Of a DNA stretch of 64,000 nt, positions 557 to 62,186 are shown piece after piece. The stretch spans positions 103 to 64,102 of the IMG/VR virus record IMGVR_UViG_3300020048_000138, one strand, 5' to 3'. The translations under genes and the position numbers were made by a program. This DNA is from a virus. Its lineage: Duplodnaviria; Caudoviricetes. A model generated the notes under the pieces. The model had not been told where the DNA came from. It saw only the letters and a program-made list of their open reading frames with translations, and did not search any database. Position 1 is the stretch's first letter. Every line of letters starts with the position of its first letter.

Positions 557-1041
557 AAAATGGTCTCCATCCCTTGATTAGTGTACTTAAACACTGATAT
601 TTCAGCCGACCTGAACATATTAACTATGTCATTAACTTCATCGCCACCGTATTTGCCTTCAAATACAATAGATTTTACACCTGCATTTATAAGCATCTTG
701 GCACAGATTATACAAGGAAATGTAGTACAGTACAATGTACTACCAACTACAGATACGTCTTCTCGTGCAGCAAAAATAATACAATTCTGTTCAGCGTGAA
801 CACCACGACACAGTTCATGTCTTTCACCGGATGGTATATTGTTAATCATTCTGTAACATCCGACGTCTTCACAATGTGGTACGCCTTTCGGCGTACCATT
901 AAAACCGGTTGTAAGAATCACGTCATCTTTGACTAGGATAGCTCCTACTTGTCTTCTTAGACAAGTACTACGTTGAGCAATTAACCGTGCTATACTTATG
1001 TACAACTCAGTTTTGCTGATTCGTTTCTGTTGGTCCGTCAT
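550..1041 (-). CDS. dCMP deaminase (ComEB/DCTD family)
   Basis: [15 protein letters not shown] and PCIIC zinc-binding motifs; GGAGG SD. Confidence 0.95.
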
Positions 1042-1246
1042 TTACAACCTCCTTTTGTTTGAATATTACGGGACTTGCTTTTTCAAACGTTCTGCCGCCA
1101 GCATAGACAACAAAAACAACTGAAAAACAATCACAAAGTATTTTAAGCACATTTTCTTTGTTCAAGCATGTAGCTATAATTATTGCTATCATAAATAAAT
1201 AAAGAATGATGGGACGGGCCCACGATGTCAATCGACTTTCGCGCAT
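1007..1246 (-). CDS. Holin-like small membrane protein
   Basis: Two hydrophobic helices with WARP...YAGGRTFEK, resembling the GTA/3TM holin family. Confidence 0.5.
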
Positions 1247-1288
1247 ATAATTCCTCCTGTATCTGATTTATTATATCATAATAGAAGA

Positions 1289-1591
1289 CTAATTGGAATT
1301 TATTTCTTTACTGAGAGGAATACTTCTCGCGGAGGTAAAATCAATTACAAATTTGCCATCACGCAAGTACGATTTAAAAGTACAGAACAACTTTGTATTG
1401 CAGAACACTTCTACAACCTCGATTGCATCTGAGTTCGTTACATCATAATATGTTGTACGTGTTACGCTAGGTACCCCATGTTTTACTTTGTTAATTGCGC
1501 CCTCTATACACAACTCCATGCGTCTAACATAAGCTGGATGGTCATGTACTTCTGCTCTTGTCATTTCAGACAGTTTTTTAATTTTTTTCAT
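1289..1591 (-). CDS. Hypothetical protein
   Basis: ORF in operon with AGGAG SD. Confidence 0.6.
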   Translation of the reverse strand: MKKIKKLSEMTRAEVHDHPAYVRRMELCIEGAINKVKHGVPSVTRTTYYDVTNSDAIEVVEVFCNTKLFCTFKSYLRDGKFVIDFTSARSIPLSKEINSN

Positions 1592-2339
1592 TGTCTACTC
1601 CTAGCTCGACAAGGGTTTCAGTATTTTGTGATTCACCTTCAGCTATGTCCACATGTGTTACCATTTGCGTCTGTACATCCTCTGGCAGTCTGTCAGTTAC
1701 AACTATCTTAGCATTACCCATAGTTTCAGTTTTTTTAACAAGGGCTTCATAAAGAAACTTTATCATGTGCAGCATAACTTTACTTATAACCATAGGAAAA
1801 GAATGTACCTGTTCTTTGTAACCAAGTACTGGACAAGTTATGTATTTCTTATTCAAGCCTCCTTTTTCAACCTTATGAACTTTACCACAAACACATTTTA
1901 TGGCCTGGTGCTGTATAAAAACAAATTCTGATTTGAAATACGCGAAAAGACAAACACCAACGTAAGGGTGAGCCAGACCAGAAGGCAAGGTTAAGTACTC
2001 AGGAGTTTCAATAAGAACTTTAACCAGTTCTGAAGTCTTTGTATCGTAAGGTAATTTCAATTTGTCCAGCATGCCGTAAATAAGACCGTTTGCTTGTACT
2101 GCTTTCTTTGCTGCCATCTTTTCTATTAACTCTTTTTTCTGTTCTTCTGTCATGTTTTCTTTTTTAAGTGTCTGCATTTGTTTACTCCTTATTGTGCTTA
2201 CATTATCCACGTCTTTTACTAATCCGTTTAATTCTTTTTGCTCTACCATTTTACGCTCCTTTTCAGTTACATAACTAACTTCATCTACCCACCTCATGCC
2301 GTCTATTTCAACGAGTGAGTAATGCGGTCCGTGCGGCAT
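1578..2339 (-). CDS. Hypothetical Cys/His (zinc-binding?) protein, paralog of 2308..2934
   Basis: CLFAY...CVCGKVH...C motif; start uncertain. Confidence 0.65.
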   Translation of the reverse strand: MPHGPHYSLVEIDGMRWVDEVSYVTEKERKMVEQKELNGLVKDVDNVSTIRSKQMQTLKKENMTEEQKKELIEKMAAKKAVQANGLIYGMLDKLKLPYDTKTSELVKVLIETPEYLTLPSGLAHPYVGVCLFAYFKSEFVFIQHQAIKCVCGKVHKVEKGGLNKKYITCPVLGYKEQVHSFPMVISKVMLHMIKFLYEALVKKTETMGNAKIVVTDRLPEDVQTQMVTHVDIAEGESQNTETLVELGVDNEKN

Positions 2340-2934
2340 ACCATGTCTCCACTACTTTAGTATAGTCTATAATCCCTTTTGTTTGTATATACTCACAGTA
2401 AATCACAAACAATTGCATCGGTATAAAATCTTTTAGGCACTTCTTCCAGTTGTCAGCACTGATTTTATAGTCAAAATTTTTGCATACTAAAAATCTTTCA
2501 CCTGTAGAAGTTTTAACTGTCTTGTGGATTTCTCCACAAGCACAGTTAACTGTTCCTTTTTCTTCGTCATAGAACTCGCCTTGATGCCATGCGAATAAAG
2601 ACAACTCAGCTCTTGGACTAAGTTTATTCTTTGTAACATAAATATTATACAAAGGATTTTCCCAGAGTTTTATAATAAGTTTGTCTATAGTAACTTTATT
2701 TCTATCAGTAAACTCTAACTCTGTCAACATGTTGTCTAATGCCATGTATTTCTTTCTAAGTGCGTCAGACACCTTTTGGTTTACTTTCTCACTTATCTGC
2801 TCCATGGTCATCTTTAACTGTTTTTGTCTATTAGCATATACTTCTTCCATGTTGTCTTCTTTGATTCTTTTGGTTACACCAGCAATAACTAAAGCGGGTT
2901 GTAAATCTGTGACATAATGATATTTTACTTTCAT
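2308..2934 (-). CDS. Hypothetical Cys/His (zinc-binding?) protein, paralog of 1578..2339
   Basis: SLFAW...CACGEIH...C motif. Confidence 0.65.
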   Translation of the reverse strand: MKVKYHYVTDLQPALVIAGVTKRIKEDNMEEVYANRQKQLKMTMEQISEKVNQKVSDALRKKYMALDNMLTELEFTDRNKVTIDKLIIKLWENPLYNIYVTKNKLSPRAELSLFAWHQGEFYDEEKGTVNCACGEIHKTVKTSTGERFLVCKNFDYKISADNWKKCLKDFIPMQLFVIYCEYIQTKGIIDYTKVVETWYAARTALLTR

Positions 2935-2943
2935 ACATACCTC

Positions 2944-5712
2944 CTACAGTTTTATGTCACTGTAATTTATATTTGTGTTAGTCTGTATACTAGTAAGAAT
3001 CATGTTTATCATGGCTTCGTCAGTAGTTTTAGTTTTAAGCCATTTATCAAAGTCTTTTTTCTCACCCCATCTTTTTTCTGTAACTGAAGCATCTGCGTAT
3101 AATTTAACAGGAAAATTAGGCAGTGGTGGTTCTTCCATAATACCTTTCAGTACGTTTACAACCTTGATGATGATTCTTGGGTCGTTGTCGACTTCCATAA
3201 TTACTTCATCATGTATCTGTTGTATTTGGTCCACATGACCTGCTACAAAACAACAGTCTTCACCGAATGGCACGCCCTCTACATTATGCCTGTAAGTATC
3301 TCTTGCTATTAAGTCATATATTTTGTTCTGTGACTTTTTCATAATGTCTGCAGCTGAGCCCTGTACTGGTGTGTTTGCTGCTTTTCTTTCATCACTAGAC
3401 CGAAGACGTCGGTTAAGTGAGTTTATGTACATCAAGACTCTTTTATACCCAAAGATTGTTTCGGCTTGTCCAAATTTCCTAGCTCTTGCCGCTGCTGCTT
3501 TCTGGAAGACTGCTATGCCAGGAAAAGTCTTGTGAACAGCACTAACTATGTTCTCACAAAACTCAATAGTTTTTCGCATGTGCAATCTTTTAAAAGTTTT
3601 CTGTAATGACCTGGACGTACCACAGTAAGATATACCGAAGTTACCGTACTTAGCATGTCCTCTGTCACCTTTAGTTATTTGGTCTATTGGTTTGCCCGTC
3701 ATAGTGGCAGCAGTTCTAGCATGAAGGTCAGCTTTCTGGTCCAACACTTCTCTCATGTGTACATCTTTTGCTTGCCATGCCATAAGTCTTAATTCAAAAC
3801 CAGCATAGTCAATAAGTATCCATGCCTTACCTTCTGGTGCATGATATATGTGTTTTATGCCGAATGGGTCCGTGTCATCACGAGGCACGTTCTGGGAGTT
3901 AGGGCTACTTGCATTTAAACGGCCAGTATCAGTCCAAGGTGTGTAATGTGCATGTATTCTACCTGTTACAGGATGTACAAACTTTTCACGGCTATAAATG
4001 TGTGAAGTAAGAAGCACACAGTATTTTTGAACATCAGCAATTAAATCAAGGAGTCTAAGGGCATCCTTTTGAAAAGGTTTGTCTCTGTTTCTTATTTCAA
4101 ATGCTTTGCACTGGTCCGGTGTTTCTGGACCAGTTTCAGGTATTACTATGTCAACATAGCGTTCTTCACTTATATTTTCCAGTTTGTTTTCAAGTAGAAA
4201 CCGCATGTCAACCATTGCCTCTACGTCCATGTCAGGATTTCCAGTAGACTCAGACACTTCAACATAAGGACAACCCAGTATATCGTACAAGAAGTAACGA
4301 ACAGCTGTGTTCTTTCCGGTTTTTCCTGGGTCCATGTTTACTAAAGGTCCCCATATAGCACTATCTGCACCATCGTCACGAAGTGTCTTTGCCCACTCGT
4401 TTGCCATATCAATAACCTGTTCACGGGCATGGCTCAAAGCATATTCCACTTTGGTTCTAACTTCATTTGCTCTTTGTTTATCCCATGCAAAGCCGTGGTA
4501 CTCCATCTGTCCTATAACTCTTGAAAACGCCATTTCTACACCGTGTAACCATTCATTATAGTTACCGTACGGTCTAGTCCACTTAGTCACGGTTGTAGAA
4601 ATAACTTTGCCCTCGCTGTCTACAACCTCTTGTGTTTCTAACGGGTCCCGTTCAATGATGATTTGTTCGGCCAACTCTTTCCAGAACATGTAGTGCTGAA
4701 GTGAATAGTCAGAGTCTTCCGCTGAGTATTCAAGGGCTTCAGGTAAATCAGCCGACAATTCATTAAAGAAACTTACATTGTGTTCTTTCAACAAAGCTTC
4801 AAAGTTACTCATCTGTACGCCCAAGTATTGTTTTGTAGAGTCCTTCAAACCTTTACCTTTAATAGGGCTTATTTCATTTAGGTCTGTTGGTTTAATAATC
4901 TGTAGGGTTCTAACAAGTTGAACTAGAGGGTCAGCACAAGGAGGCTGGACGTAAAGTTTCAAATCACAAAGCATTTTCTGCTCAAATGGTAAGTTAAAAG
5001 CAATTTTAACCACTTTGTTATTGTTTAATATCATCTTGTTAAACAGGTTAAATACATTATTGCGACGGTCTACAGAAGCAAGATTCTGCTGGTAGTTAGT
5101 GCCTTCAACGTGGTCGATGAATACAACCGCGGCTTCATGTGGGTAAGCTGAAAATGACACTGTACAAATATGACCTCTGTGCGGGTCTAATGGAGCTCGC
5201 AGATAATAGTCATAAGCTTCCTGTTGTTTCTTTATAGTTGTTTTAAACAACTTTTCGTATTCTCTTGTAATAGATACACGCATGTTAGGATTTGCTGCTA
5301 GTGCTTCGTTCATATCCATTTTAAGTATTTCTTTTTCAGCTTCACACTCGTCTGCCATGTCTACATAGATTTTGTACGCTATGTCTTTAGGGCAGGTTTC
5401 AAAGTCAAAGCTACAATAACCAGACTGGATACATCTATCAAAGTAGTCTTTTAATGCTTGTTCAGTATTTACCTTAAAATAATTTTTAGGTTGTTGTACT
5501 GGCATAGTTGGCCATTTGTAAATCGGTTCTTTATACTTTCCTTTAAGACTCTGCCATACTGTAGCTGGGTCAGGGTTTATCTGCGGGTCAGGATTAGCAT
5601 TAGGATTATGCACTTTTTGTTCCGTTTTAATTGAACCTGCTTCTCTTTCTTTTTTCTGCTTACTTGCAAGTGATTCACCACTCGGAACATTGAAAATTGA
5701 ATTTAATTTCAT
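2944..5712 (-). CDS. polA: DNA polymerase family A with 3'-5' exonuclease domain
   Basis: ExoI DFET; TGRLNASSPNSQNVP; motif A IDYAGFELR; motif B AKYGNFGISY; NTPVQGSAADIMK; motif C QIHDE. Confidence 0.96.
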   Translation of the reverse strand: MKLNSIFNVPSGESLASKQKKEREAGSIKTEQKVHNPNANPDPQINPDPATVWQSLKGKYKEPIYKWPTMPVQQPKNYFKVNTEQALKDYFDRCIQSGYCSFDFETCPKDIAYKIYVDMADECEAEKEILKMDMNEALAANPNMRVSITREYEKLFKTTIKKQQEAYDYYLRAPLDPHRGHICTVSFSAYPHEAAVVFIDHVEGTNYQQNLASVDRRNNVFNLFNKMILNNNKVVKIAFNLPFEQKMLCDLKLYVQPPCADPLVQLVRTLQIIKPTDLNEISPIKGKGLKDSTKQYLGVQMSNFEALLKEHNVSFFNELSADLPEALEYSAEDSDYSLQHYMFWKELAEQIIIERDPLETQEVVDSEGKVISTTVTKWTRPYGNYNEWLHGVEMAFSRVIGQMEYHGFAWDKQRANEVRTKVEYALSHAREQVIDMANEWAKTLRDDGADSAIWGPLVNMDPGKTGKNTAVRYFLYDILGCPYVEVSESTGNPDMDVEAMVDMRFLLENKLENISEERYVDIVIPETGPETPDQCKAFEIRNRDKPFQKDALRLLDLIADVQKYCVLLTSHIYSREKFVHPVTGRIHAHYTPWTDTGRLNASSPNSQNVPRDDTDPFGIKHIYHAPEGKAWILIDYAGFELRLMAWQAKDVHMREVLDQKADLHARTAATMTGKPIDQITKGDRGHAKYGNFGISYCGTSRSLQKTFKRLHMRKTIEFCENIVSAVHKTFPGIAVFQKAAAARARKFGQAETIFGYKRVLMYINSLNRRLRSSDERKAANTPVQGSAADIMKKSQNKIYDLIARDTYRHNVEGVPFGEDCCFVAGHVDQIQQIHDEVIMEVDNDPRIIIKVVNVLKGIMEEPPLPNFPVKLYADASVTEKRWGEKKDFDKWLKTKTTDEAMINMILTSIQTNTNINYSDIKL

Positions 5713-5723: not shown

Positions 5724-6047
5724 TTAGTTGTGCATTAAAATAGTAATAAACTCCTGGTTGTTTTTAATGAAGTTTTTAAGTCCAAGTGTCATACCAACTA
5801 CCTGGGTCTCAGAGAGGTCTAAGTCAAGTTCGTGACTCAAAGCGTGTACGCATTCGTGCAATAAAATCTGGTTTTGTCTTGTAGGACTAACCTGGTTACT
5901 AACTACTATCTCCTGTGTATCATAATCCACTTTACCATAAAGCACACTTACTGAATTTGTTACCTTATCTGATTTGGTAACGGAATAAAGCATGCCTTCA
6001 CAATCAACGGTTGTAGGAAATTCGATTTTGTCAATCTTTTTGCTCAT
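5724..6047 (-). CDS. Small HExxH zinc metallopeptidase-like protein
   Basis: ILLHECVHAL motif. Confidence 0.6.
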   Translation of the reverse strand: MSKKIDKIEFPTTVDCEGMLYSVTKSDKVTNSVSVLYGKVDYDTQEIVVSNQVSPTRQNQILLHECVHALSHELDLDLSETQVVGMTLGLKNFIKNNQEFITILMHN

Positions 6048-6798
6048 TACTAGCTCCTTTCAAATATTGTTTGTAATTGTCAGCTAACATTGTTGACGCT
6101 TGTTTTAAGTTAGTGTATACCACATCTACCATGTCCTCAAATACTACTGGAAATAAATTATACATAATAGTAAATGCTTGTGTCATAAGTACCCGCATCT
6201 GTGGATGTGCTGCTTTATTATAAAAACTTCTTTGTCTAAATACTTCCCGCCATTGTCTTAAATTACAGGTCATATTTACTTCGGTCTTTAAGTTTGTAGG
6301 CAGTACACCCCGTGCTATTTCAGGTCTTATGCCAAGTTTAATAAGTTTCATATAAGCTAGTTCAGCTTGTGTCATAGCTTCCAGCCAGATTTCTACAACC
6401 TCGTTTATTGCTTCAGCAATTAACTCATTGGAACCAACTGGCACGTTATTCTGTATATTTTCAGCTAGTACAGAAATCATGTTTATTACACTAATTTCAT
6501 TAGCTTTACCGTAGTTACAGTAACGTGTTGACTCCTGAGAATAAGAAGCTAGTCTATGTCGTACTAACTCATGTGACACACCTCTGTCTTCAATAAACTT
6601 CAAGGACGCTGTTACATGTTCAAGTACAGACAAATGACCTCTTGCTATTAACATTTTGACAAATTTACCAGCTGAGTCTTCCGTTATCTTGTCCTCGGAC
6701 TTGTAACAAGTCCTGCCCATCTCTTCTATAACTTTATAAGCCATTTCTCCTGTTGGTCCATTGAACATAAATTTTACTGAAGGCTGTACAAGTTTCAT
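6031..6798 (-). CDS. thyX: FAD-dependent thymidylate synthase
   Basis: GHLSVLEH, SHELVRHRLASYSQESTRY (RHRx7S), ARGVLP, AHPQMR. Confidence 0.96.
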   Translation of the reverse strand: MKLVQPSVKFMFNGPTGEMAYKVIEEMGRTCYKSEDKITEDSAGKFVKMLIARGHLSVLEHVTASLKFIEDRGVSHELVRHRLASYSQESTRYCNYGKANEISVINMISVLAENIQNNVPVGSNELIAEAINEVVEIWLEAMTQAELAYMKLIKLGIRPEIARGVLPTNLKTEVNMTCNLRQWREVFRQRSFYNKAAHPQMRVLMTQAFTIMYNLFPVVFEDMVDVVYTNLKQASTMLADNYKQYLKGASNEQKD

Positions 6799-7082: not shown

Positions 7083-7386
7083 ACATTACAACCATTTCTG
7101 GGTAAAGTGGGTCATCCATGTGTACTGTTATTTCTAACTCTTTTGTTCCGCAGTAAGACGCTAAATATTTTTCAGCTTTCCTTAACTTAAAACAGGAGGC
7201 GGCAGACTTCCAAAATGTGTTTTCATTTTTGTATGTTGGCGTTTGTTCCATTACTTTATAAAGTCTATAAAGTTTAGTAACATTACAGGAGGGTAATGTA
7301 CTAAGTGATATTATATACCCTGACCGTACGTCTTGTGCCAATAAAGTAGTGCTTATTAACAATAACATAAACATTATCTTTTTCAT
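7036..7386 (-). CDS. Hypothetical exported protein
   Basis: Signal-peptide-like N-terminus MKKIMFMLLLISTTLLA. Confidence 0.6.
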   Translation of the reverse strand: MKKIMFMLLLISTTLLAQDVRSGYIISLSTLPSCNVTKLYRLYKVMEQTPTYKNENTFWKSAASCFKLRKAEKYLASYCGTKELEITVHMDDPLYPEMVVMCGTNEQMEMFDEQDI

Positions 7387-7408
7387 CTTTCCGCCTCTCT
7401 ATAAATAA

Positions 7409-9337
7409 TTAATTTAAGTTATCCCCAGGATTATCCTTGTTCTCTCCTGTTATAGATTTGAATCTAGGGAGTGTCTGAATATTCGGATGCGAAAGAATGT
7501 AATCACCAAGAAACAATATATGAATATTGCTCTCGATAAATCTGGTGACTGCTTCTTCCGGAGTCCTTATAATCGGTTCCCCATGGGCATTAAATGACGT
7601 GTTTATAAATGCTGGTTTACCTGTCAATTTTTTGTACCTTATAAGGGCAGTGTAAATAAACGGATGGTCATCACGGCTTACAACCTGTGCTCTGACCGTG
7701 CCGTCAATATGGACAGCACCCGGACAAAGTTCTTTAAACAAGTCTGACGCTGTGAAATTTATGGTCATGTACTTCGCAGCTTCTTTTGTAACATCATTGT
7801 AGTCAAGAAACATATCTTTTGCATCAACATCACAAATAACAGGGGCAAATGGCATTGTTTCTGTTCTACCCAACTGTTTGTTTAACCAAAGACTTACATC
7901 TTTGTCAGTGCAATTAAAGTGTATAGACCTATTACAAAGAGCTCTAGGACCCCACTCCATAGGACCATTATAATTTGCTACAATATACCCATCATTTATT
8001 GCTTTTGCAAGTACAGATGCTTTGTCATCACATTTGGACAACATACAATTTGTAAGTCTGTGATAAGACCACTGTATTTCGTCATGGTAAGGATTATAGC
8101 CCATGTATATTGACTTTAATTCATTGTTACGAATATAAGTTGTATCAAACAACTGAGCAAATGCTGCTCCTACAGATGTACCACCATCGCCCATGTGAGG
8201 ACAAATCCAAAGTTTTTTAACATTTGGAAGTTTAGCGATTTTTTGATTTATAATCACATTTGCAAACAAGCCACCAGCAAGACAAACGTTTGTAGGTTTC
8301 TCACACTGTTCCATAAAAAACCGTATAAAGTCAACAGCCAGATTTTCTACAACCGTTTGAAGACTACATGCTATATCCGCTATGGTTTCCACGTCATGGC
8401 CTCTGTCGGCTAGTATTCTCTTAACAACCTGGAACACTTTTGCTTCATACTTTTCAAAAATGTCAAAGTCAATAATAGGACTTGTTTTCAATGTGGTATG
8501 GTTGGATTCCAGTCCTCTCACATAATCCATTATGCTTACAAAGTCCTGTATGTAAACTGGTTTACCACGGGCAGCGAGTCCTGTAAGTTTGCCTTCCTGT
8601 TCGTGCATCTTGTATCCGACAGCACCGGTTGTAAACTGGTACAACAAGCCAAGAGAACATGCTAAAGGCATTGTTTCTACTGTTCTAAACTTGTTTTCTC
8701 CTGGTTCCATTTCATGGAATGCTACTGAACGACCATCACCAAAACCGTCCATAGTAAATATCAAGCACTGTTCATCTAAAGGATAGTTAGATGTACCCCA
8801 AGCACTGAAGGCATGTGCTACGTGATGGTCAACTCTGATTATCTCAGGTAAATCGTATGTACCAAGTGCATGTCCTATTAAATGCTTTAATAAGTCAGAA
8901 CTCAGTTTAGAACCATAATTTGACTTCAAATGGTACGTGTAATAGTCTTTATCTGATTCACATTTGGTCCAGAACTCACCCACTTGTTCAAAAAATAATT
9001 TGTCTTCATCACTGGACATAGCTTCCATCATTTTTGCTATACGTATTTTGTTATAACGTATTAAGTCATACGCACATATATCAGCATAGTGTGAAAGAGC
9101 TATGGCATGAAGATTTTTCAAAGACAAGTTTGTTGTACTTAACACGTGGTTTATAGAGTGAAATGGAAACTCTTTTGTTTGTTTTGTTCTGTTATATCTT
9201 TCTTCATTTGTAGCACAAAGTAATCCATGTATATTAGATACTATAGCGGCACCTGAGTCAGAGCCTAGTGAAATACCTAATACATTAATACCTGAACTTG
9301 TAACCGGGATAACATGTAAACTCATACTGTCCTCCAT
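7409..9337 (-). CDS. O-carbamoyltransferase (NodU/CmcH/TobZ family)
   Basis: NEERYNRTK, HHVAHA, DGFGD, EGKLTGLAARG, LAGGLFANV, GDGGTSVGAA, EWGPRALCNRSI, MPFAP, HIDGTVRAQ, NTSFNAHGEPI. Confidence 0.95.
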   Translation of the reverse strand: MEDSMSLHVIPVTSSGINVLGISLGSDSGAAIVSNIHGLLCATNEERYNRTKQTKEFPFHSINHVLSTTNLSLKNLHAIALSHYADICAYDLIRYNKIRIAKMMEAMSSDEDKLFFEQVGEFWTKCESDKDYYTYHLKSNYGSKLSSDLLKHLIGHALGTYDLPEIIRVDHHVAHAFSAWGTSNYPLDEQCLIFTMDGFGDGRSVAFHEMEPGENKFRTVETMPLACSLGLLYQFTTGAVGYKMHEQEGKLTGLAARGKPVYIQDFVSIMDYVRGLESNHTTLKTSPIIDFDIFEKYEAKVFQVVKRILADRGHDVETIADIACSLQTVVENLAVDFIRFFMEQCEKPTNVCLAGGLFANVIINQKIAKLPNVKKLWICPHMGDGGTSVGAAFAQLFDTTYIRNNELKSIYMGYNPYHDEIQWSYHRLTNCMLSKCDDKASVLAKAINDGYIVANYNGPMEWGPRALCNRSIHFNCTDKDVSLWLNKQLGRTETMPFAPVICDVDAKDMFLDYNDVTKEAAKYMTINFTASDLFKELCPGAVHIDGTVRAQVVSRDDHPFIYTALIRYKKLTGKPAFINTSFNAHGEPIIRTPEEAVTRFIESNIHILFLGDYILSHPNIQTLPRFKSITGENKDNPGDNLN

Positions 9338-9579: not shown

Positions 9580-9979
9580 CGGGGTTTACAACCGCTATTG
9601 AATGGAAAACCATTTGACAAAGTCTATCATTTGCTTTAAAGGAGAAAGGAGTATCTGATAGGTTAACCAGTATGATAGAAAACTCTCCTGCGAAACTGGA
9701 GTCAATAGGTGCCATTACAGTGATAACGCCTTGTGAACCCACTGAACTTCTTGGGTATAGGTTAGCTTCATAACCGATAGGTACATCGACACTAAAGCCA
9801 GACTTAACCTTAAAGATTTTTCCTGGTTCTATTATGCCACCACAAGGCATGTACAAGTCTATGCCTGAATCATTACTGTAAGCTTTGCTTGGATAGTTTA
9901 CATCAGCATTATGTCTTACAAATACTACATCCATAACTTTTCTCCTATCTGCTCCATTAACCACATAGTAGATTGACAT
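9521..9979 (-). CDS. dut: Trimeric dUTPase-family nucleotidohydrolase
   Basis: DSGIDL, PRSS, APIDSSFAG, RLCQ, RGNNGLGSSG (motifs I-V, with III and V diverged). Confidence 0.88.
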   Translation of the reverse strand: MSIYYVVNGADRRKVMDVVFVRHNADVNYPSKAYSNDSGIDLYMPCGGIIEPGKIFKVKSGFSVDVPIGYEANLYPRSSVGSQGVITVMAPIDSSFAGEFSIILVNLSDTPFSFKANDRLCQMVFHSIAVVNPVVWADMSTRGNNGLGSSGV

Positions 9980-10968
9980 AGATATGGTTCAAGGTTCTCT
10001 AATGACTGTTTCATTAGTGTTTTTACCGCCTCTGGTTTATTTTTCTTATATGTCTTGTAACAAGCGTACAAAGCTAGTGTCATAGCTATATCTTTAGAAG
10101 CATTAGATTTTAAACCATTTATACCAAGTATTCTACCATACTGAACTGGGTCTACATGTTCTTGTAGTCTGTAGAACTCTTCAACATTACGAAGCAAAGA
10201 TAAGTCTGCCATAAAAGCACTATCATATACTATGTCTCTTTTGTAAGAGTCATACAAGTAGTTACTATTTGTTATTCTTACAACCTCGTCAGCAAGTTCA
10301 TAATCTTTTCTGTATATGTGAAAAGAACCGACTGTGTGATAATAAGCTCCACATTGTACTTTTAACTCATTTGCTATTATTTCCTGAAGTACAGTAAAGA
10401 AATAAACATCATAAGTAGTACCCCACACACAATCATTACTTCTCATTGTGACATGTTGTACTAATTTATTGTCACGGATAAAGAATTGTAAACAAAGTGT
10501 GCAAACTTCATCATTTGTGGGTACTTGATTTGGAGTGTGTAAATGAATTATAGCTTGCCTTGTAAATGGGTCATCTTTTAATTGCTGTATAACTCTTTTG
10601 AATTGGTTAAATTGAATTGTTAAATACTCAACACCTTTGAATATTCTGTGACCATAAGCACTATTTAATGTTTTACCGTCATCTGAGCATCTGTTCCATA
10701 CTTTAGAATAGTAAGAAATAAAGTCAAGTGAATTACTACCCAGAAAATACCAAAGCAATTCACCCGCCATGTAAAATGGATTAGGTTTACGAGCTTTATT
10801 AAACAGTATCCTGTCTCTGCAATTTGTAAAATTAAATGTATGACCTATTAACTCTTTACATTCAATCCCTCTTGGAAATACAACAGAACCTTTCCATTTC
10901 AAACATTCCAATGAATGTACATACGAATTACTAAAATTATCCATAACAACCTCACAAATTAAGTTCAA
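9925..10968 (-). CDS. Thymidylate-synthase homolog of the dCMP hydroxymethylase type (T4 gp42-like)
   Basis: GELLWY, SAYG, DEVCT in place of ThyA PCH, RSNDCVWGTTYD with Asp at the Asn177-equivalent site, GSFHIY. Confidence 0.88.
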   Translation of the reverse strand: MNLICEVVMDNFSNSYVHSLECLKWKGSVVFPRGIECKELIGHTFNFTNCRDRILFNKARKPNPFYMAGELLWYFLGSNSLDFISYYSKVWNRCSDDGKTLNSAYGHRIFKGVEYLTIQFNQFKRVIQQLKDDPFTRQAIIHLHTPNQVPTNDEVCTLCLQFFIRDNKLVQHVTMRSNDCVWGTTYDVYFFTVLQEIIANELKVQCGAYYHTVGSFHIYRKDYELADEVVRITNSNYLYDSYKRDIVYDSAFMADLSLLRNVEEFYRLQEHVDPVQYGRILGINGLKSNASKDIAMTLALYACYKTYKKNKPEAVKTLMKQSLENLEPYLCQSTMWLMEQIGEKLWM

Positions 10969-25775: not shown

Positions 25776-25880
25776 CTTTTTTTGATATAGAAGTATAAAT
25801 TAATTTTACGGCGGAAATTCTACAACCTCTTTAACTGGTTGTAGTGTACTTTTACACTTATAAAAATTACTATGGATTTC

Positions 25881-50740: not shown

Positions 50741-52137
50741 GCCACACTCCGTGTCATAGGAATTATTATGCCTGAGTCGTCTTCATCAATGCCTGCAAGT
50801 TTAGTAACACCCCAAACACAAGCGTCAAGTCTATTAGGTGACTTATCACCAGGTACCCATTCAGTAAGCTCTTCTTCAAGTTTAGCAAGTACGCCAACGT
50901 GATGAACTTTGCCTTGTTCATACAAAGCCGCCACTGGTTCTGCTCTTGTGTACTTATCACGTGACGCAAATACTTTCTCTACCGGTACATAAGGGTCTAT
51001 CAAGTTAATAACGGTACTAACTAAGTCACCGCCATTATTAACTTCAGCTACCACTTTGTTGGCTCTGTGTCTATGAAAAAGCATTATTACTTTTCTAGCC
51101 CAAGCATCAGCTCCTAACTTCTCGCTCTCATCATTAAGTACATAGTATTGGTTATCGTCTGACTCACCACAAATAATAATTCCAGTTTCATCAGACTTGT
51201 CTTTGTTAGTAACGGCAGGGTCAACTGATACATAAAGTTTACGTAAAGTAGGAGCAACCATAACTCTGTACTTGTCAAGTGTTTCAGTTTTCCACAAAGC
51301 GCCGATAACATCACCAAGTATTTCGGCATGTAATTCCTGTCTGCCGAGTCTTGTACCTTCATACTTTTTAATTACGCGCTTAATAAAGGACGTAGCCAAG
51401 TTAGAAATGTTCTCGTAAGAACTTCCGCTTGTCAAAAATACATCGTTATCTTTTATTAAGTCCTTAATTAAAGGTTTAGGCTGAGGTGTTGTCGTAACAA
51501 TCGCCTGCGGTAAAGCGCCAAGTCTCAACCCCATTTCAAAGTTGTCCCATGCTTCCTGCATAGCCTTAAATTTTACAAGTTCATCTACCCAGCCCTTTTC
51601 ATGCTGTGGACCACGTAACTGGTCCGGTTCATCGCCCGAGTAAAGGTAAGCGACGGCTCCGTTTGGCCATTCTACAACCCTTCGTGATGCGATATAACGT
51701 GGTTTGTTATAAGAAGGCGAACAAGTAATAATACCAGACTCACCTTCCAACATTACATCACGAACGTCAGGAGTTGTTTGCCCTATCAAGGCGAAACGGG
51801 AAGCACCCTTTATAGTCGATGGTGATTCCACTCTTTTGGATGGATTTTGCCACCGGATAATGGCCTCCGCTCCAGTTCTAGTTTTACCAAACCCTCGTCC
51901 TGCCAATATAAGCCAGATAAACCATTGTCCTGGCGGTATTTGCTGTTTAGGTCTACCCCAAAAGTCCCAATCACAATTGAGTTGCTCAATTTCAGACTGG
52001 TCATAACCTACCAATAGTTCTTTTCTAGCCTCCACGTCCAATTCTGCAACCTTCTCTGCCATAGAAAGGCCACTACGTGTATCCATAGTAGGCCCATTCG
52101 GCTTAATAGATTTGTCAGAATTAACATGGTTAAGCAT
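50737..52137 (-). CDS. terL: Terminase large subunit
   Basis: GRGFGKT, LRGPQ, WVDE, VTTTP, VSVDP, SPNRLDA. Confidence 0.96.
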   Translation of the reverse strand: MLNHVNSDKSIKPNGPTMDTRSGLSMAEKVAELDVEARKELLVGYDQSEIEQLNCDWDFWGRPKQQIPPGQWFIWLILAGRGFGKTRTGAEAIIRWQNPSKRVESPSTIKGASRFALIGQTTPDVRDVMLEGESGIITCSPSYNKPRYIASRRVVEWPNGAVAYLYSGDEPDQLRGPQHEKGWVDELVKFKAMQEAWDNFEMGLRLGALPQAIVTTTPQPKPLIKDLIKDNDVFLTSGSSYENISNLATSFIKRVIKKYEGTRLGRQELHAEILGDVIGALWKTETLDKYRVMVAPTLRKLYVSVDPAVTNKDKSDETGIIICGESDDNQYYVLNDESEKLGADAWARKVIMLFHRHRANKVVAEVNNGGDLVSTVINLIDPYVPVEKVFASRDKYTRAEPVAALYEQGKVHHVGVLAKLEEELTEWVPGDKSPNRLDACVWGVTKLAGIDEDDSGIIIPMTRSVA

Positions 52138-53662: not shown

Positions 53663-54374
53663 ATACTAAGTTTTTTTCACAATGACTTGGGTTCAAAATG
53701 GATTTTCAAAAGATTGAAGGCCCCCTTCGTCAAAATTTCAAAATTATATATTTGCCATTTTACAAAATACTTGCCCGTACGGTTCAGTAAATCTGCACAC
53801 CCCTCATTTCGGAAAAGTTGTGTATTTTTCAACGTCACTTTCCGTGTCTACAACCCTTAAACACCATTCAAAGAGGTTGTAAGAGGCCGTACTTTTGCAA
53901 AAAAACTCAAAACACTGTGTGGTTAAGAAAGCCAGTGAGTCCCATGTAACTCTAACAATACCTAAACTATTCTACTTTTAGTTTTTTGAACTTAAAAGTT
54001 TTTTGTTCAAAAAGTTTTTTAATTAAAAGGTTTTTAAGTTAAAAGTTTTTTGAATTAAAAAATTAAATGTTCAAATTAATTATAATTCGATTATTTTTAA
54101 TAGTTAATAAAGATTTTTTATTTTATATTTGATTTAATTATTTATAATAATCATTAGAATATTTTTATTTAATATTAAATTAGATTATTTAGAATAAGGA
54201 TTAAACAATTTATATTTAATAATTAATTATATTATTTATAATAGAGATTAAACATTTTATATTTAATACTAAAATAGATTATTTTTAATTGTTATTAGAA
54301 TATTTATATAAAATAATAAATTAGAATAGATTTAATATTGATTAGAAATTTTAGATTGATTGATTGATTTTAGA

Positions 54375-56046: not shown

Positions 56047-56718
56047 AACCAGGGGCCAGTCGCCCCTTAAGGTCAGGGTTACAACCCCTGGACTTAAGAA
56101 GCGGTTGGAGACCACAGGCGATGACCAGTGACCAGCTGACTCCCGATTCCAGTCATATCTGGAGGCAGGAGACAGATGGCCGACGAGTCCAGGTGGCAGA
56201 CTGCAGGCCAGGTGACAGATGGCAGGAGAAATGATTGAACTGGTTCATCACTAGAGCGCCCACAGTTGACAACTGTTGACGAATCGGGTGAGGCCAGGTG
56301 ATTCCTAGGTCTTTGACAATCGAGCAGCGGGAAGGTCAGCCAAAAACCTGGCTACCTCTAAAGAAACTTACTGGGTGACCCTATATGTGGGGGTCCCGGC
56401 CACTGGGTCATCGAAAAATTTCATCAAATTTCTCGAAGTAGGACCCAGGAAGCAGTAACCAGCTACTCGCTATCGGCGAGCCAGTTACCTGTAAAGGTGA
56501 CCAGTAAAGGCCAACAGTTATCTCTAAAAGATGACCTCCAGCCTCCTACCGGCAATCGGTTACCAGCAAGTTTCAAAAAGAAAGGTATAGTAAAGCCCCT
56601 CCTAACAAACCCCTTGACCTGGTATAGGTCAAGGGTCAGCTATGGAGCCTACAGTCCCCTTTGGTGATTCAACCAAAGGAGGTTGTAGACCCTATAACTT
56701 AGAACAAGGAGGCACCAA
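56047..56718 (+). ncRNA. Candidate structured non-coding RNA or regulatory DNA
   Basis: ~670 nt GC-rich gap with no ORF of 60 aa or more and many long hairpins. Confidence 0.35.
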
Positions 56719-57150
56719 ATGGTAAGAATGACACTTGAAGAAATGGCCAACTGTTTAGAATCTAAACCCGATGTGTTTAAAGTCCCATCAGGAAAACCTA
56801 AACTTACCAAGGCCGGCCGAGACCGTCAGAAAGCACACTATGCAGACCGAGCAGACATCTGCCGAGTCCTAGCCAAGTACCTCATAATCCTAAAGGTGAA
56901 CTTTCACCTGGATTATAAGACTACAACAATGTGGATTGACTCAGTGCGAGTCACTGAAGGCATCCTTCAGTTCACCCATAGTGAGGTTGTAAACAGCGAA
57001 GAACCTGTCGACCATATCACTATGTTACTCAGAATGGCCGATGCCTATGATGACTGCTATGAGTCTGTTAATTCAGTCGAAAACATGTTTTACAACCTTG
57101 ATGTTGATTATGACATGCAAGACTTTATCGGTCACAAGAAAGAGCTTTAG
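56719..57150 (+). CDS. Hypothetical protein
   Basis: AAGGAGG SD; followed by a hairpin. Confidence 0.75.
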   Translation: MVRMTLEEMANCLESKPDVFKVPSGKPKLTKAGRDRQKAHYADRADICRVLAKYLIILKVNFHLDYKTTTMWIDSVRVTEGILQFTHSEVVNSEEPVDHITMLLRMADAYDDCYESVNSVENMFYNLDVDYDMQDFIGHKKEL

Positions 57151-57217: not shown

Positions 57218-57571
57218 ATGTTAAAAATTACTATGGCTATGACAGGAATTATGTTTGTCGGTTTAATCACACTTTGTGCCAACTATGCTAGTGCAGCAGA
57301 CGAAGCACTTGATGAGGTTGTAAGCGGTTGTGAGGAATCTTGTGGCAACTTTCCTGGAGCACAGTTCAATGAGTGCTTTCAGCAGTGTGTTGAAGCTGGT
57401 GGACCTGGGGAATCAGACTGGGAGCCAGAAATTGACTGTGATGAGTGCTACGAATGTAAGTGTGTAGGTGAGTGTACCTATGACAACATGACCTGTGAAT
57501 TTCAGCACACAGATACTTGTGTTGAGAATTGTTTAGTTGATGGCGAAGACATTTATGGTGACTGGGAATAG
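57218..57571 (+). CDS. Secreted Cys-rich acidic protein
   Basis: Signal peptide ending ASA|A; 12 Cys in the mature part, several as CxxxC. Confidence 0.75.
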   Translation: MLKITMAMTGIMFVGLITLCANYASAADEALDEVVSGCEESCGNFPGAQFNECFQQCVEAGGPGESDWEPEIDCDECYECKCVGECTYDNMTCEFQHTDTCVENCLVDGEDIYGDWE

Positions 57572-57724: not shown

Positions 57725-58177
57725 ATGGAGGCTACTATGTCAAAAAAGAACACAAAAAACCAAGTGAACACAGTTGTTGAGTCTACCCCTGAAATGGTTC
57801 TTGAATCAACAGAGGTTGTAGAAGTGTCTGTAAGGGACCTTGTGAAAAAGGAAGCAGAGACAGTAAGCATTAACCTGGAGGCAGGAAAGTACAAGATTTC
57901 TGACAAATCGGTGATTTACAAAAGAGGCAAGGCTTGGACGATTGACACCACCATAGACGAAAAGAATGTGGTTGGTTCAGTACTCAAAGATGACCTTAAA
58001 GGAATAGCAAGGACCTACTGGGTGGGTGGTGAAAAAGCCTACCAGAACAAAGGTTTGGTCTATCTCAGTCAGATTATTAAGGCCCTTCTTAATGTAGAGG
58101 TTGATTTGAACCATGAAAGGCAGATAGCAAGAGAGTTCATAAGGTTACATGAAAGTGAATTGACATTTAATCAGTAG
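57725..58177 (+). CDS. Hypothetical early protein, paralog of 55744..56046
   Basis: DLKGIA...QNKGLVYLSQ...EVDLNHER. Confidence 0.8.
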   Translation: MEATMSKKNTKNQVNTVVESTPEMVLESTEVVEVSVRDLVKKEAETVSINLEAGKYKISDKSVIYKRGKAWTIDTTIDEKNVVGSVLKDDLKGIARTYWVGGEKAYQNKGLVYLSQIIKALLNVEVDLNHERQIAREFIRLHESELTFNQ

Positions 58178-58219: not shown

Positions 58220-58690
58220 TTGGCTATTAAGGAGGCTATTATGATTACTAAGTTTGGTTCTCAAATTCGCAAGGCTATGAATTGCGAGCAGTGCTATGAG
58301 TGGAATGGTGGGTGCATCAGCCTAGACGAAGCCTGCAACAAGAATGGGTCGTCTACAACCCTGTTAACCGAGGCATTAAGACTGGCAACAGCTAATGGCT
58401 ACGGTGTGATACTTGGAGGAAAGAATCTGATAGCAAGACACCGGGTGGATGGAGACTTGAACTTCCAGTATGTTACCAGTGCCATCTATTGGTTCACTCT
58501 TTACAACCACTTTAAAGAGGTTGAAGGAGTCGAGAAGTTGGAGAAAGGAGGCAAGAACTGGCAACTGTGTTGGAAATGCACAGACATACTGGATGGATAC
58601 TTTGAAGGTGACCAACAGACAATAATTCCTTGCTCTTTACCTGAACTTGATGACGAACTCATCAACAAGGCTATGGTGATATTTAAGTGA
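58220..58690 (+). CDS. Hypothetical protein
   Basis: Probable start MITKF after AAGGAGG; CxxC motifs. Confidence 0.7.
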   Translation: MAIKEAIMITKFGSQIRKAMNCEQCYEWNGGCISLDEACNKNGSSTTLLTEALRLATANGYGVILGGKNLIARHRVDGDLNFQYVTSAIYWFTLYNHFKEVEGVEKLEKGGKNWQLCWKCTDILDGYFEGDQQTIIPCSLPELDDELINKAMVIFK

Positions 58691-59166: not shown

Positions 59167-59197
59167 TTCAATGGCGGGTATTACAACCGCCATTGAA
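59167..59197 (+). terminator. Hairpin overlapping the genome-wide octamer
   Basis: TTCAATGGCGG-9nt-CCGCCATTGAA. Confidence 0.55.
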
Positions 59198-59581: not shown

Positions 59582-59683
59582 CCATGGGTAAAAAAGTAGT
59601 AATCGTTACAGTGGTCTACGTAGTAGACACAATGGGTGAAGCACAGAATGTACTCGATGAGGTTGTAGGCGTATGCGGGCCTT

Positions 59684-60620: not shown

Positions 60621-60732
60621 AAGTTGGCACTATGGTTACAATAAAGCGGTTGTAAAATCCATTCAACTTATAGAAGCATACCAACAGTCTGAACCAACTA
60701 TGCTTATAATGCAAATACTTAACATGAGGTAC

Positions 60733-60957
60733 ATGACAGAAGACAATTACCATGTAAAAGTACCTCGTTGTATATGTAAGTGGGATTCACAACGCAGTAA
60801 GTATGTGGAATATTACAACCCTCGATGTATATTAAACAATGCTCAGTATGGTGGAGCTTATTACGGATTTACAATAGTTCTTAAAGTACTAGCAAATCAC
60901 GGGTATTATGCTTCCGTACTAAAAGATGGAGAAGTTCAACCAGTTATTTATAGGTGA
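60733..60957 (+). CDS. Hypothetical protein
   Basis: Track ORF 60544..60957; start moved to ATG 60733 (GAGG SD), past the terminator. Confidence 0.5.
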   Translation: MTEDNYHVKVPRCICKWDSQRSKYVEYYNPRCILNNAQYGGAYYGFTIVLKVLANHGYYASVLKDGEVQPVIYR

Positions 60958-61172
60958 CAATCATGCAACAATTCGTACAATTTACACAAAAAGATGGTAC
61001 AATTATATCTGGTAAATCTAATGCTAAAATATACTTTAAGCAAAACAAGAACTTATTTCTTGTTTGGATTAACCACATTATGTACATACTGTCAGCGTCA
61101 GAGAAAGAAACATTTCACTGTATACGTCAACCAAAATCAAGTCCAACTCCGGACAAACAATCATTAAAGTAA
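60954..61172 (+). CDS. Hypothetical protein
   Basis: Last plus-strand ORF before the convergence region. Confidence 0.5.
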   Translation: MTIMQQFVQFTQKDGTIISGKSNAKIYFKQNKNLFLVWINHIMYILSASEKETFHCIRQPKSSPTPDKQSLK

Positions 61173-61391
61173 GTTCTCCACAGTTTCCATTAAATTCTCT
61201 CCGGATATAGATATTCATTATCACCAAGTTTTTCAATATATCTAAACTGTGTGATACTGTTATTTATACCATGATTTAATTATTCAATGATTTCAAGGGG
61301 TTATGGGAAGTTCTCCACAGTTTATCTCCATTTCAATCCATATTGAGATATTCGTGAGAATGACTTCGTTCACTGTGGATGAACTGTGGAA
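61171..61391. repeat. CCACAGT motif cluster (DnaA-box-like) at the strand convergence point
   Basis: AAGTTCTCCACAGTTT at 61171 and 61308; reverse ACTGTGGA copies at 61372 and 61383. Confidence 0.65.
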
Positions 61392-61458
61392 TCCATTTTT
61401 TAACCCTAAAATGATTATTTTCTATAAAATGGGATATTTTAGACAGATTTATTGAAAG

Positions 61459-61704
61459 TTATTTGATAGTTGCGACTACTTTGCCTTTAAATAAAATATC
61501 CATAGTTGACGGATTCAGCATGTACTCTTCTGTACCATCCTTGAATATCATCCACTTTGTTATAGGTCCTGCTTTTTTCATAAAGTCATATATTTCCTGG
61601 ATACAACCGACAGGTCTTTTTGTGCCTTCCATTACAAATTCTCTTTGTAACAATGGCGTTGTGTTTTTACCGTAAGGTACTCTTATGAATACATGCGCTT
61701 CCAT
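61459..61704 (-). CDS. Hypothetical protein
   Basis: ORF in the minus-strand operon. Confidence 0.6.
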   Translation of the reverse strand: MEAHVFIRVPYGKNTTPLLQREFVMEGTKRPVGCIQEIYDFMKKAGPITKWMIFKDGTEEYMLNPSTMDILFKGKVVATIK

Positions 61705-62186
61705 TAGATACCTTCTTTATTAAGTTCGTTTATTACATAATTAACGCCTTTGTTCCATGCTTTCAACAAAAGGTTTTTAACGTATGTACTATCCATTTGA
61801 CCTATATTGTTTCCGTAAGAGTCTGTGCCTATAGCTTTATACAATTGGTTATAATTGGTAAACATAATCTTACATGCTAAATCTGTCTGCCATCCAATGT
61901 CATCTTTTACGTCGCCCCACGTTTTTTGTCTTATCTGGAAAATGCCTTTCTCTGAGTCTTTACCAATTGCGCTTGGGTTTAAAGTAGATTCTTTCTTGGC
62001 CACTTCCCACAACACGTCAACAAAAGAAACTTTGTTAATAACACACGCGTTAATTTCTGTTACCAATTCTTTGTACTGTGTTTCTGTTAAGTTTGGGTTG
62101 ATTTTCTGCGCTTTCTTCAAAGACATAGCGTCGGCCATCAAAGCGGTTGTAAACACGACAATAAATAATAATACAATAAACTTCAT
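61704..62186 (-). CDS. Exported lytic transglycosylase (SLT)-like protein
   Basis: Signal peptide; AKKESTLNPSAIG...GIFQI. Confidence 0.7.
   Translation of the reverse strand: MKFIVLLFIVVFTTALMADAMSLKKAQKINPNLTETQYKELVTEINACVINKVSFVDVLWEVAKKESTLNPSAIGKDSEKGIFQIRQKTWGDVKDDIGWQTDLACKIMFTNYNQLYKAIGTDSYGNNIGQMDSTYVKNLLLKAWNKGVNYVINELNKEGI

Follow-up and report, generated by a model that had tools for sequence, protein, structure and literature searches.

The window, by which we mean the whole stretch of 64,000 nucleotides that was analysed, comes from an uncultured 64-kb tailed phage in which the word GGTTGTA(A/G), written GGTTGTAR below, occurs on both strands about once per kb. The heptamer GGTTGTA is found 28 times on the + strand of the window, and TACAACC, which marks the copies on the - strand, is found 42 times; a sequence-only reading of this DNA had estimated about 27 and about 40. 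The match extends to GGTTGTAR/YTACAACC in 64 of these 70 heptamers (the earlier estimate was about 63 of about 67), the next base being A in 35 copies, G in 29, T in 5 and C in 1. All of the example coordinates in that reading proved to be correct. Against the 70 heptamers observed, Markov models predict 12.8 (order 2) or 24.5 (order 4) for both strands, and the heptamer reversed without complementing, used as a control, has 2+2 copies in the window. Ranked by z-score, the word comes first among the 7-, 8- and 9-mers of the window, and its single-mismatch variants are all at or below expectation there.

Most of the GGTTGTAR copies (56 of 64) lie within genes. Sense copies on the - strand have the form GGTTGTAA at 3156..3163 (in the DNA polymerase gene), 7086..7093, 7678..7685, 9586..9593, 10278..10285, 11182..11189, 13468..13475 (the only copy in the primase gene), 24164..24171, 26352..26359 (in the amidase gene), 31805..31812, 39407..39414 and 50230..50237, and the form GGTTGTAG at 1411..1418 (reading Val-Val), 4620..4627, 6393..6400, 8347..8354, 17717..17724, 20452..20459, 21916..21923, 22968..22975, 25224..25231, 30128..30135, 36230..36237, 37507..37514, 41727..41734, 44393..44400, 46429..46436 and 51672..51679. 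On the + strand, sense copies are located at 56985..56992, 57316..57323 and 60648..60655 (GGTTGTAA) and at 57814..57821 (GGTTGTAG). Antisense copies on the + strand are GGTTGTAA at 907..914, 2897..2904, 8627..8634, 16695..16702, 23349..23356, 24833..24840, 28393..28400, 35282..35289, 37347..37354, 39768..39775, 43058..43065 and 62145..62152, and GGTTGTAG at 4591..4598 (forming a convergent pair with the copy at 4620), 6009..6016, 12947..12954, 24048..24055, 46937..46944 and 50006..50013; those on the - strand are GGTTGTAA at 57090..57097, 58501..58508 and 60813..60820, and GGTTGTAG at 58353..58360. A - strand GGTTGTAA copy at 1042..1049 overlaps a Shine-Dalgarno sequence (GGAGG) before the ATG at 1041. 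Intergenic copies of GGTTGTAA are found at 26064..26071 (+), 56079..56086 (-) and 59181..59188 (-), and of GGTTGTAG at 56681..56688 (+, overlapping a GGAGG) and 59661..59668 (+). Finally, an inverted pair is present in each of the large intergenic regions on either side of the virion module: GGTTGTAG at 25820..25827 (-) with GGTTGTAG at 25837..25844 (+), separated by a 9-bp spacer, and GGTTGTAG at 53848..53855 (-) with GGTTGTAA at 53875..53882 (+), separated by 19 bp.

The sequence-only reading held that codon bias alone was unlikely to explain the excess, and this is borne out. Genes contain 38 sense and 24 antisense copies, as against roughly 6+6 in codon-preserving shuffles; with three codon-aware shuffles, sense copies number 5.5-6.2 and antisense copies 4.1-9.9, and no more than 15 and 21, respectively, are reached in 500 runs, so that the count is not reproduced. 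Where the amino-acid context permits the word in sense, it is present in 32 of 75 cases (43%) versus 2.7 expected (3.6%), and where the context permits it in antisense, in 15 of 53 (28%) versus 0.8 expected (1.6%). These observed-to-expected ratios of 12 and 18 indicate that both orientations are equally selected. The excess is written in synonymous codons: Val-Val and Thr-Thr dipeptides are not enriched in the window, while the codon pairs GTT-GTA (43 versus 19.8 expected) and ACA-ACC (19 versus 4.6) are. The word does occur in both orientations, as had been claimed, but it does not use all frames freely, since 34 of 37 sense copies share the frame xxG GTT GTA Rxx (Val-Val); among antisense copies, 15 of 24 read nYT ACA ACC (Thr-Thr). 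The remaining sense frames would require Gly-Cys or an in-frame TAA or TAG, which accounts for the predominance of one frame. Frame preference thus reflects a limit that coding sets on a word acting at the DNA level, and is not the source of the excess. Moreover, the copies share a flank preference, R-N-GGTTGTA-R-R-M, in which positions -2, +1 and +2 are alike whether a copy is sense, antisense or intergenic.

Sites are spaced by 1.7 kb on average on the - strand and 2.4 kb on the + strand. Compared with sites redrawn among amino-acid-compatible positions, this spacing is more even on each strand taken separately (coefficient of variation, CV, P=0.003 for - and P=0.04 for +), and strands alternate more often than by chance (40 switches versus 33, P=0.03). 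When both strands are pooled, evenness is not significant (CV P=0.13), and the three close pairs of sites are as many as chance gives (P=0.6). The evidence on spacing comes from a few tests, whose P values range from 0.003 to 0.04. We also compared sites with one close relative of 87% nucleotide identity, L009. Here, 10 of the 12 compared sites are identical (39407, 41727, 43058, 44393, 46429, 50006, 50230, 51672, 53848 and 53875), versus 40% of all 8-mers (P=0.003). Conservation at synonymous positions, which had been proposed as a check, points the same way: third codon positions are 91% identical within sites versus 73% elsewhere (P=0.018). This comparison indicates purifying selection on the sites. 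The two sites lost in L009 are both on the + strand, at 39768 and 46937; for the latter, L009 has a new + site approximately 0.9 kb away, opposite position 47809 of the window.

No enrichment of the word is seen in about 45 related phages, or in three phages whose primase is homologous. Two genomes whose primase-MCM protein is 54% identical, phBC6A51 and contig L012, are without any comparable word, and vB_BboS-125, also at 54%, has only an excess of CGCCGTA that is weak and ambiguous. We sampled 406 Bacilli genomes as candidate hosts, a set that may not include the phage's own host: in 5 Bacillales genomes the 8-mer occurs at 0.05 per kb, below the reversed control, and in the other 401 the 10-mer never exceeds about 3x its control. 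As an enriched word it is absent from relatives and sampled candidate hosts, and it is not host-derived as far as tested.

Given this lack of enrichment in relatives, in phages with primase homologues and in Bacilli genomes, and given the enrichment through synonymous codons in both orientations, the exactness, the common flanks, the conservation in a relative and the evenness on each strand, GGTTGTAR is a lineage-specific recognition word that is selected on the DNA itself and read strand by strand throughout the genome. The original idea of a dispersed recognition site is thus strongly supported at this general level. We infer that the reader of the word is encoded by the phage. Nothing links the word to any of the ORFs formerly suggested as binders (11490, 16835, 55744 and 57725), and relatives that do not have the word still conserve ORF 16835 (HTH_17) together with the genes next to it. 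Among the specific roles put forward in the sequence-only reading, primase sites and a Chi-like signal are viable and fit the per-strand spacing, while T5-type nicks fit less well, because they are known on one strand and selection here is equal on both.

A Chi-like signal would act on a translocating helicase-nuclease (host AddAB or RecBCD, or a phage enzyme) that reads it on one strand, and would switch this enzyme from degradation to recombination, protecting and recombining phage DNA from either entry end. If the DNA is to be protected from ends that lie at random and face both ways, even spacing in each orientation would be an advantage, and the exactness of the word is suitable. Moreover, the window has no recognisable recombinase or inhibitor of RecBCD/AddAB, and phages of that class accumulate Chi. 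Indeed, in the Chi-rich phages P1, the lambdoid LLS and Pseudomonas phage relatives, an exact octamer is likewise the most frequent 8-mer, at about 1 per 1-2 kb, read on one strand and positively selected rather than due to codon usage (PMC12315714). However, that octamer is the host's Chi and abundant in the host. A functional Chi is expected to be abundant in the host genome, so the counts of the 8-mer (5 Bacillales genomes) and of the 10-mer (401 Bacilli genomes) weigh against this explanation. LLS sites are also strongly co-oriented (20/23) and clustered at one end, whereas sites in the window are equally selected both ways and evenly spread. The known Chi words of Bacilli (AGCGG, GCGCGTG and GAAGCGG) are unrelated to GGTTGTAR and not enriched in the window, and we know of no Chi-like control of SbcCD-type nucleases. 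On balance we consider a Chi-like role unlikely. Alternatively, a sequence-specific DNA-binding protein of the phage might read the site on duplex DNA as a monomer, e.g., for silencing in the manner of stoperators, for organising the genome or for marking phage DNA. A single monomer would fit an asymmetric site of about 10-12 bp whose preferences extend into the flanks, there are many small early ORFs without a recognisable family, and the inverted pairs in the large intergenic regions are in keeping with such a protein. There is also a precedent in cluster A mycobacteriophages, where the phage-encoded L5 (gp71)/TipsytheTRex repressor binds more than 20 asymmetric, lineage-specific 13-mers scattered genome-wide (PMC9283540). 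However, these stoperators tolerate variation, are mainly intergenic and are co-oriented with transcription, whereas our word is exact, mostly within genes and equal in both orientations; transcription-factor sites would not usually lack enriched near-cognate variants. Evenness that appears per strand and is not significant after pooling is not what one expects of a duplex binder, and the close pairs are only as numerous as by chance. Stoperators belong to temperate phages, while no integrase or repressor was seen in the window and the wholesale replacement of C, which appears to give way to a modified base in this phage's DNA, points to a lytic phage. A role of this kind is, in our estimation, distinctly unlikely.

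Exact 8-mer specificity also resembles enzyme recognition, and the word could be where a site-specific nickase or an enzyme that modifies DNA acts, producing T5-like interruptions or motif-specific methylation or hypermodification. The phage has an ATP-dependent ligase and a rich set of nucleotide- and DNA-modification genes, including those for a P-loop kinase-like protein and a carbamoyltransferase, and T5 virion DNA similarly has a short consensus recognised at many places. However, T5 nicks are few and confined to one strand, and the word is on both. The window has no recognisable nickase or methyltransferase, and an enzyme's target needs neither enrichment nor even spacing. We consider this explanation quite improbable. 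Finally, the over-represented octamers known in phages are mostly host words, and the phage might merely mirror a host genome saturated with an uptake sequence- or HIP1-like word. A frequency of about 1 per kb, both orientations, lineage-specific "dialects" and placement within genes in frames yielding tolerable peptides are all features of the USS of Pasteurellaceae and the DUS of Neisseriaceae (PMC1939737). In addition, the amidase has its nearest named homologues in non-Bacilli MAGs. However, USS and DUS are features of bacterial genomes tied to competence pili, whereas the carrier here is a phage, and the word is enriched in none of the 406 Bacilli genomes. The closest cultured relatives of the phage infect Bacillales, which are not known to have sequence-specific DNA uptake, and passive mirroring does not foresee per-strand evenness inside a 64-kb phage. 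We regard this possibility as very doubtful.

The likeliest role, which we propose tentatively and by analogy, is that GGTTGTAR may be the template recognition and start site of the phage's own primase. The candidate reader is a 1014-aa protein (13058..16102, - strand) that fuses an AEP primase to an MCM-type helicase. It has PHROG matches to primase and helicase, Pfam matches to DNA_primase_S (67-201), weakly to the PriL-like DNA_primase_lrg (189-298) and to MCM (582-773), and matches to MCM structures in the PDB; it is 54% identical to the proteins of Bacillus phages vB_BboS-125 and phBC6A51 (BcMCM). We infer the following course of priming. The primase would bind GGTTGTAR on the single-stranded template and begin the primer inside the word, e.g., opposite T6, yielding 5'-ACAACC, and the 3' A-R-(R-M) would stay uncopied as "cryptic" bases. 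Approximately one site per 2 kb per strand could then set the size of Okazaki fragments for either fork direction. Under the primase reading, equal enrichment on both strands requires forks in both directions, which we assume. On the strand that is read the word has no C, and the phage appears to replace C with a modified base; T4 primase uses GTT and not GCT on hydroxymethyl-C DNA.

Several observations temper the primase reading. A C-free trinucleotide would do for priming, so 8-10 nt is longer than priming calls for, and no co-variation links primase and word. The lack of a comparable word in phages with a 54% identical primase-MCM also counts against this reading. The candidate enzyme belongs to the BcMCM type (PriS-like plus MCM) and is not NrS-1-like, and its specificity for the word is putative. 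A simple GTCC/oligo-T template supports priming by BcMCM itself (PMC3273815), and a long recognition site is therefore not a trait of the family. The precedent in favour is the AEP primase-polymerase of phage NrS-1, which recognises GTG(A/G) in addition to the 8-nt template word 5'-TTTGGTTA-3', together with pRN1 ORF904, which recognises GTG (PMC8718748). Because the NrS-1 genome, by the account of these authors, has far fewer copies of TTTGGTTA than of GTG (PMC8718748), this precedent does not itself form a genome-wide grid, in contrast to the grid of about 1 per kb in the window. Nonetheless, the NrS-1 word, like GGTTGTAR, is G/T-rich, C-free and ends in A. The NrS-1 site is asymmetric and is recognised while the template is single-stranded, the primer beginning at the word or beside it, and both phages encode an AEP-type primase that is fused to, or works with, a helicase.

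On the + strand of the window we count 42 copies of TACAACC and 28 of GGTTGTA, and 64 of these 70 heptamer copies extend to GGTTGTAR; the reversed word, used as a control, occurs 2+2 times. Markov models (orders 2–4) place a word containing GGTTGTA first among the 7-, 8- and 9-mers. The sequence-only reading had considered codon bias alone an unlikely cause, and had proposed comparing k-mer counts with Markov and codon-shuffled null models. Three shuffles were performed, exchanging synonymous codons across genes, permuting codon order within genes, or exchanging synonymous codons with the next base kept. All of them fall short: there are 38 sense and 24 antisense genic copies versus 5.5–6.2 and 4.1–9.9, respectively, after shuffling, and no shuffled run (0/500) reached the observed counts, as that reading had anticipated. 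The codon pair GTT-GTA is observed 43 times versus 19.8 expected, and ACA-ACC 19 times versus 4.6 expected, despite ACC being a rare codon. Val-Val and Thr-Thr dipeptides are not over-used in the window's proteins.

We also counted every protein-compatible place for the word in the sense frame and in the main antisense frame. The word fills 32 of the 75 compatible places in the former (2.7 expected) and 15 of 53 in the latter (0.8 expected), and thus as many as 43% of the contexts in which codons permit it. Because the ratio of observed to expected is roughly equal in the two orientations (12 sense, 18 antisense), we infer selection on silent positions that acts about equally both ways. Together with the three shuffles, these counts rule out codon or dipeptide bias as the cause. 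The earlier description of the word as occurring in different frames holds for the antisense copies, which use all three frames (Thr-Thr being the commonest), but not for the sense copies, 34/37 of which are in the frame xxG GTT GTA Rxx. This is the one affordable sense frame, since the other two encode Gly-Cys or contain TAA/TAG.

The seven core positions are exact, in that all 21 one-mismatch variants (21/21) occur at or below expectation, which rules out a degenerate motif. Position 8 is A or G, and in the two positions after it R is favoured, then A/C. Upstream, a purine is favoured at position -2, and the 5' flank has many A and few G residues. These flank preferences are identical across sense, antisense and intergenic copies, and therefore belong to the site rather than to codons. 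On the written strand, the nine positions of GGTTGTA-R-R contain no C.

Conservation at synonymous positions, which had also been proposed as a check, is apparent in a close relative contig (L009) that is 87% identical in nucleotide sequence over window positions 38.5–54.3 kb and has 11 octamers in 16 kb. In the shared region, 10 of 12 sites are identical in this contig, versus 40% of all 8-mers (P=0.003), and third codon positions are 91% identical within sites versus 73% elsewhere (P=0.018). The + strand site at 46937 is lost in L009, which has a new + strand site 0.9 kb away.

The GGTTGTAR copies are distributed over both strands, with 27 on the + strand (mean spacing 2.4 kb) and 37 on the - strand (1.7 kb), and both strands carry copies in every 8-kb bin. 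No regional switch in the orientation of these 27 and 37 copies is seen across the window. When both strands are pooled, the spacing is approximately random (CV 0.85, P=0.13). We evaluated evenness on each strand with a null model in which the realised sites are redrawn among amino-acid-compatible positions. Per-strand spacing is more even than chance (CV P=0.003 for the - strand and P=0.04 for the + strand), the widest gaps are small (P=0.04 and 0.10), and neighbouring sites switch strand 40 times versus 33 expected (P=0.03); this evidence is moderate, resting on a handful of tests. The pattern suggests that the reader distinguishes the strand on which the word lies and requires sites along both strands. 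There are three close inverted pairs, and the large intergenic regions on either side of the virion module contain two of them; three is the number expected by chance, which argues against a dimeric operator. Most copies (56/64) are genic, and the 8 intergenic copies represent an about 2-fold excess that is not significant.

Searches among relatives indicate how widely the word is shared. The nearest cultured relatives infect Bacillales: the capsid protein of Sporosarcina phage Lietuvens is 47% identical to the window's, and the primase-MCM proteins of Bacillus phages vB_BboS-125 and phBC6A51 are 54% identical, in a syntenic replication module. Capsid homologues at about 50% identity belong to prophages of Paenibacillus, Lysinibacillus, Bacillus and related genera. 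In about 45 loci with this level of capsid identity, including some complete 57–66 kb genomes with terminal repeats, the word occurs at 0–0.2 copies/kb and no other word is equally strong; CTGCAGA, in two of the capsid-related loci, has only 20–22 copies per ~62-kb genome. Lietuvens has 2 copies of the word in 50 kb. These low counts argue against a word common to these capsid relatives. One capsid-related 17-kb contig (L031, IMGVR_UViG_3300001533_001435) contains the 9-mer CCTTAATCC 61 times and related words 40–60 times, which is probably a dense repeat array.

A link between the word and the primase family is likewise not supported. Neither phBC6A51 nor L012, a contig whose primase-MCM is also 54% identical, has a comparable word. 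The case of vB_BboS-125 (record positions 8529–58528) is ambiguous: CGCCGTA, which ends in GTA as the window's word does, is present in 57 copies in 50 kb, with counts of 32+22 versus 11+8 in codon-shuffled sequence, an approximately 3-fold excess in both orientations. We give this excess little weight because many other words are inflated in that genome (those containing CTGCAG, CAGCTG or CCTGG). A scan of IMG/VR for CTACAACC-N5-30-GGTTGTAG yielded no enriched locus among the 80 in the matches listed, and no closer relatives were found among viral and metagenome contigs using the DNA polymerase, the carbamoyltransferase and an amidase homologue. Two contigs of 21,160 and 27,314 bases encode an amidase 80–81% identical to the window's, and one of them also encodes a capsid protein at an identity of at least 90%. 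A full-text search of the literature for the word returned nothing relevant. The word thus appears to be private to one phage lineage, which also appears to hypermodify its cytosines.

With many exact copies on both strands, even on each strand and confined to one phage lineage, the data call for positive selection. It is rare, and informative, for selection on silent codon positions to maintain an exact word across a whole genome. A DNA-reading machine came to light through Chi, another through uptake sequences and another through stoperators, and the present word is a handle for finding its reader. Private, hyper-abundant octamers recur in other phages (TGTGGTTA, TGCCCGCG, GTGTCGA, TGCAAGCA and GYCCGAGAG), with putative readers at best, and the phenomenon may be general and is under-described. 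What this phage newly adds is evenness along each strand and an association with cytosine modification.

The window is almost the whole of a 64,102-base IMG/VR virus contig. The genes of the first ~53 kb are on the - strand, those between 55.7 and 61.2 kb are on the + strand, and those beyond are again on the - strand. As annotated, the virion genes (terminase small and large subunits, portal, SU10-type capsid protein, sheath, tape measure and baseplate proteins) show a contractile-tailed phage. A replication and recombination block encodes a family A DNA polymerase, an SF2 helicase, a RecU-like resolvase, SbcD, a split SbcC, an ATP-dependent ligase and a 1014-aa AEP primase fused to an MCM-type helicase (13058–16102, - strand). 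A nucleotide block encodes dCMP deaminase, ThyX, a thymidylate-synthase homologue, a dUTPase/dCTPase-like enzyme, dNMP kinases and a NodU-type carbamoyltransferase, genes that together suggest modified cytosine in the phage DNA. The T4-like cytosine-replacement set, at 550–1041 and 6031–13048, includes two P-loop dNMP-kinase-like proteins and a 642-aa NodU/CmcH-type carbamoyltransferase, and this combination suggests a carbamoylated hydroxymethyl-pyrimidine in the DNA.

Two known kinds of system would suit a strand-specific reader that acts over the whole genome: lagging-strand primases and Chi-type control of translocating nucleases. We tentatively favour the phage's own AEP primase-MCM helicase as the reader of GGTTGTAR. 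The phage has the gene; another phage AEP primase-polymerase, NrS-1, recognises an 8-nt template word, TTTGGTTA, and also GTG(A/G) (PMC8718748); the per-strand spacing of 1.7–2.4 kb is on the Okazaki scale, with sites on every lagging-strand template; a word free of C would stay readable in C-modified DNA; and no enriched host was found. The NrS-1 word resembles GGTTGTAR in composition and ending (PMC8718748). However, unlike the window's word, it has not been described as enriched in its own genome. The phBC6A51 homologue, BcMCM, primes on GTCC (PMC3273815), and the word does not co-vary with the primase across phBC6A51, L012 and vB_BboS-125; these observations also count against the primase. 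A more speculative proposal is that recoding of silent codon positions by the phage would lay a genome-wide grid of primase start sites, a C-free word of 8–10 nt every ~2 kb per strand, because the AEP primase-MCM would require a long template word that remains readable where every cytosine is hypermodified. Initiation of Okazaki fragments would then be a sequence-programmed event written in the genome and, if the primase is the reader, this would be the first demonstration of a genome that programs where its lagging strands start.

Among published precedents for phage octamers, the best is that of a Chi-like signal read by a translocating nuclease, as in P1 and the lambdoid LLS group (PMC12315714). 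We nevertheless consider this reading unlikely, since the copies lack an orientation bias and no enriched host was found. In five Bacillales genomes with related prophages, the octamer occurs at 0.05/kb, which is under its reversed control and ~18 times less dense than in the phage. The 10-mer GAGGTTGTAR, present in 18 copies in the window, never exceeds its control by more than ~3-fold in 401 Bacilli genomes drawn evenly from the class, and the window shows no enrichment of the Chi words known from Bacilli. The same searches bear on passive mirroring of a host word, which we regard as quite improbable. The window does resemble genomes with USS/DUS-type words in having ~1 copy/kb, both orientations, and frames set by tolerable peptides, but the 406 Bacilli genomes searched contain no hyper-abundance of the word. 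These Bacilli genomes make a host-derived word unlikely, although the phage's own host may lie outside this sample. The nearest named homologues of the amidase are from Desulfobacterales, Bacteroidales and other non-Bacilli MAGs, which makes the assignment to a Bacillales host insecure.

The reader is unlikely to be a stoperator-type protein that binds duplex DNA (PMC9283540). Stoperators are co-oriented with transcription and are placed mainly at promoters and in short intergenic gaps, whereas the two orientations here are equally selected and the copies are mostly genic. The window has no recognisable repressor or integrase, but the contig may be incomplete. It is also quite unlikely that the copies are T5-type nick sites or modification sites; among ~60 window ORFs scanned with Pfam and PHROG there was neither a nickase nor a methyltransferase, and no protein stood out as a specific binder.

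CheckV estimates the completeness of the contig at 60%. Relatives that share its capsid type have complete genomes of 57–66 kb with direct terminal repeats, and the virion, lysis, replication and early modules are already complete in the window, so the contig may be nearly complete. The lysis amidase (26215–26748) is a single-domain Amidase_2 protein that has no wall-binding domain. The SbcC/Rad50-like ATPase (21668–25707) is divided into an N-terminal gene (24148–25707) and a C-terminal gene (21668–22309), between which lie the ATP-dependent ligase and two small ORFs; phBC6A51 and vB_BboS-125 are annotated with the same split, without a ligase between the halves. An AT-rich island between divergent gene blocks (53883–56078; GC 30% over 52–56 kb) has zero copies of the word in its 2.2 kb, and is adjoined by TGGAA repeats in 10-bp phase at 53568–53662. 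After GGTTGTAR, the next most over-represented words in the window are AGGAGG, TAGGAGG and AGGAGGC, showing strong Shine-Dalgarno use, and several intergenic GGTTGTAR copies overlap Shine-Dalgarno-like GAGG/GGAGG, e.g., at 1042 and 56681.
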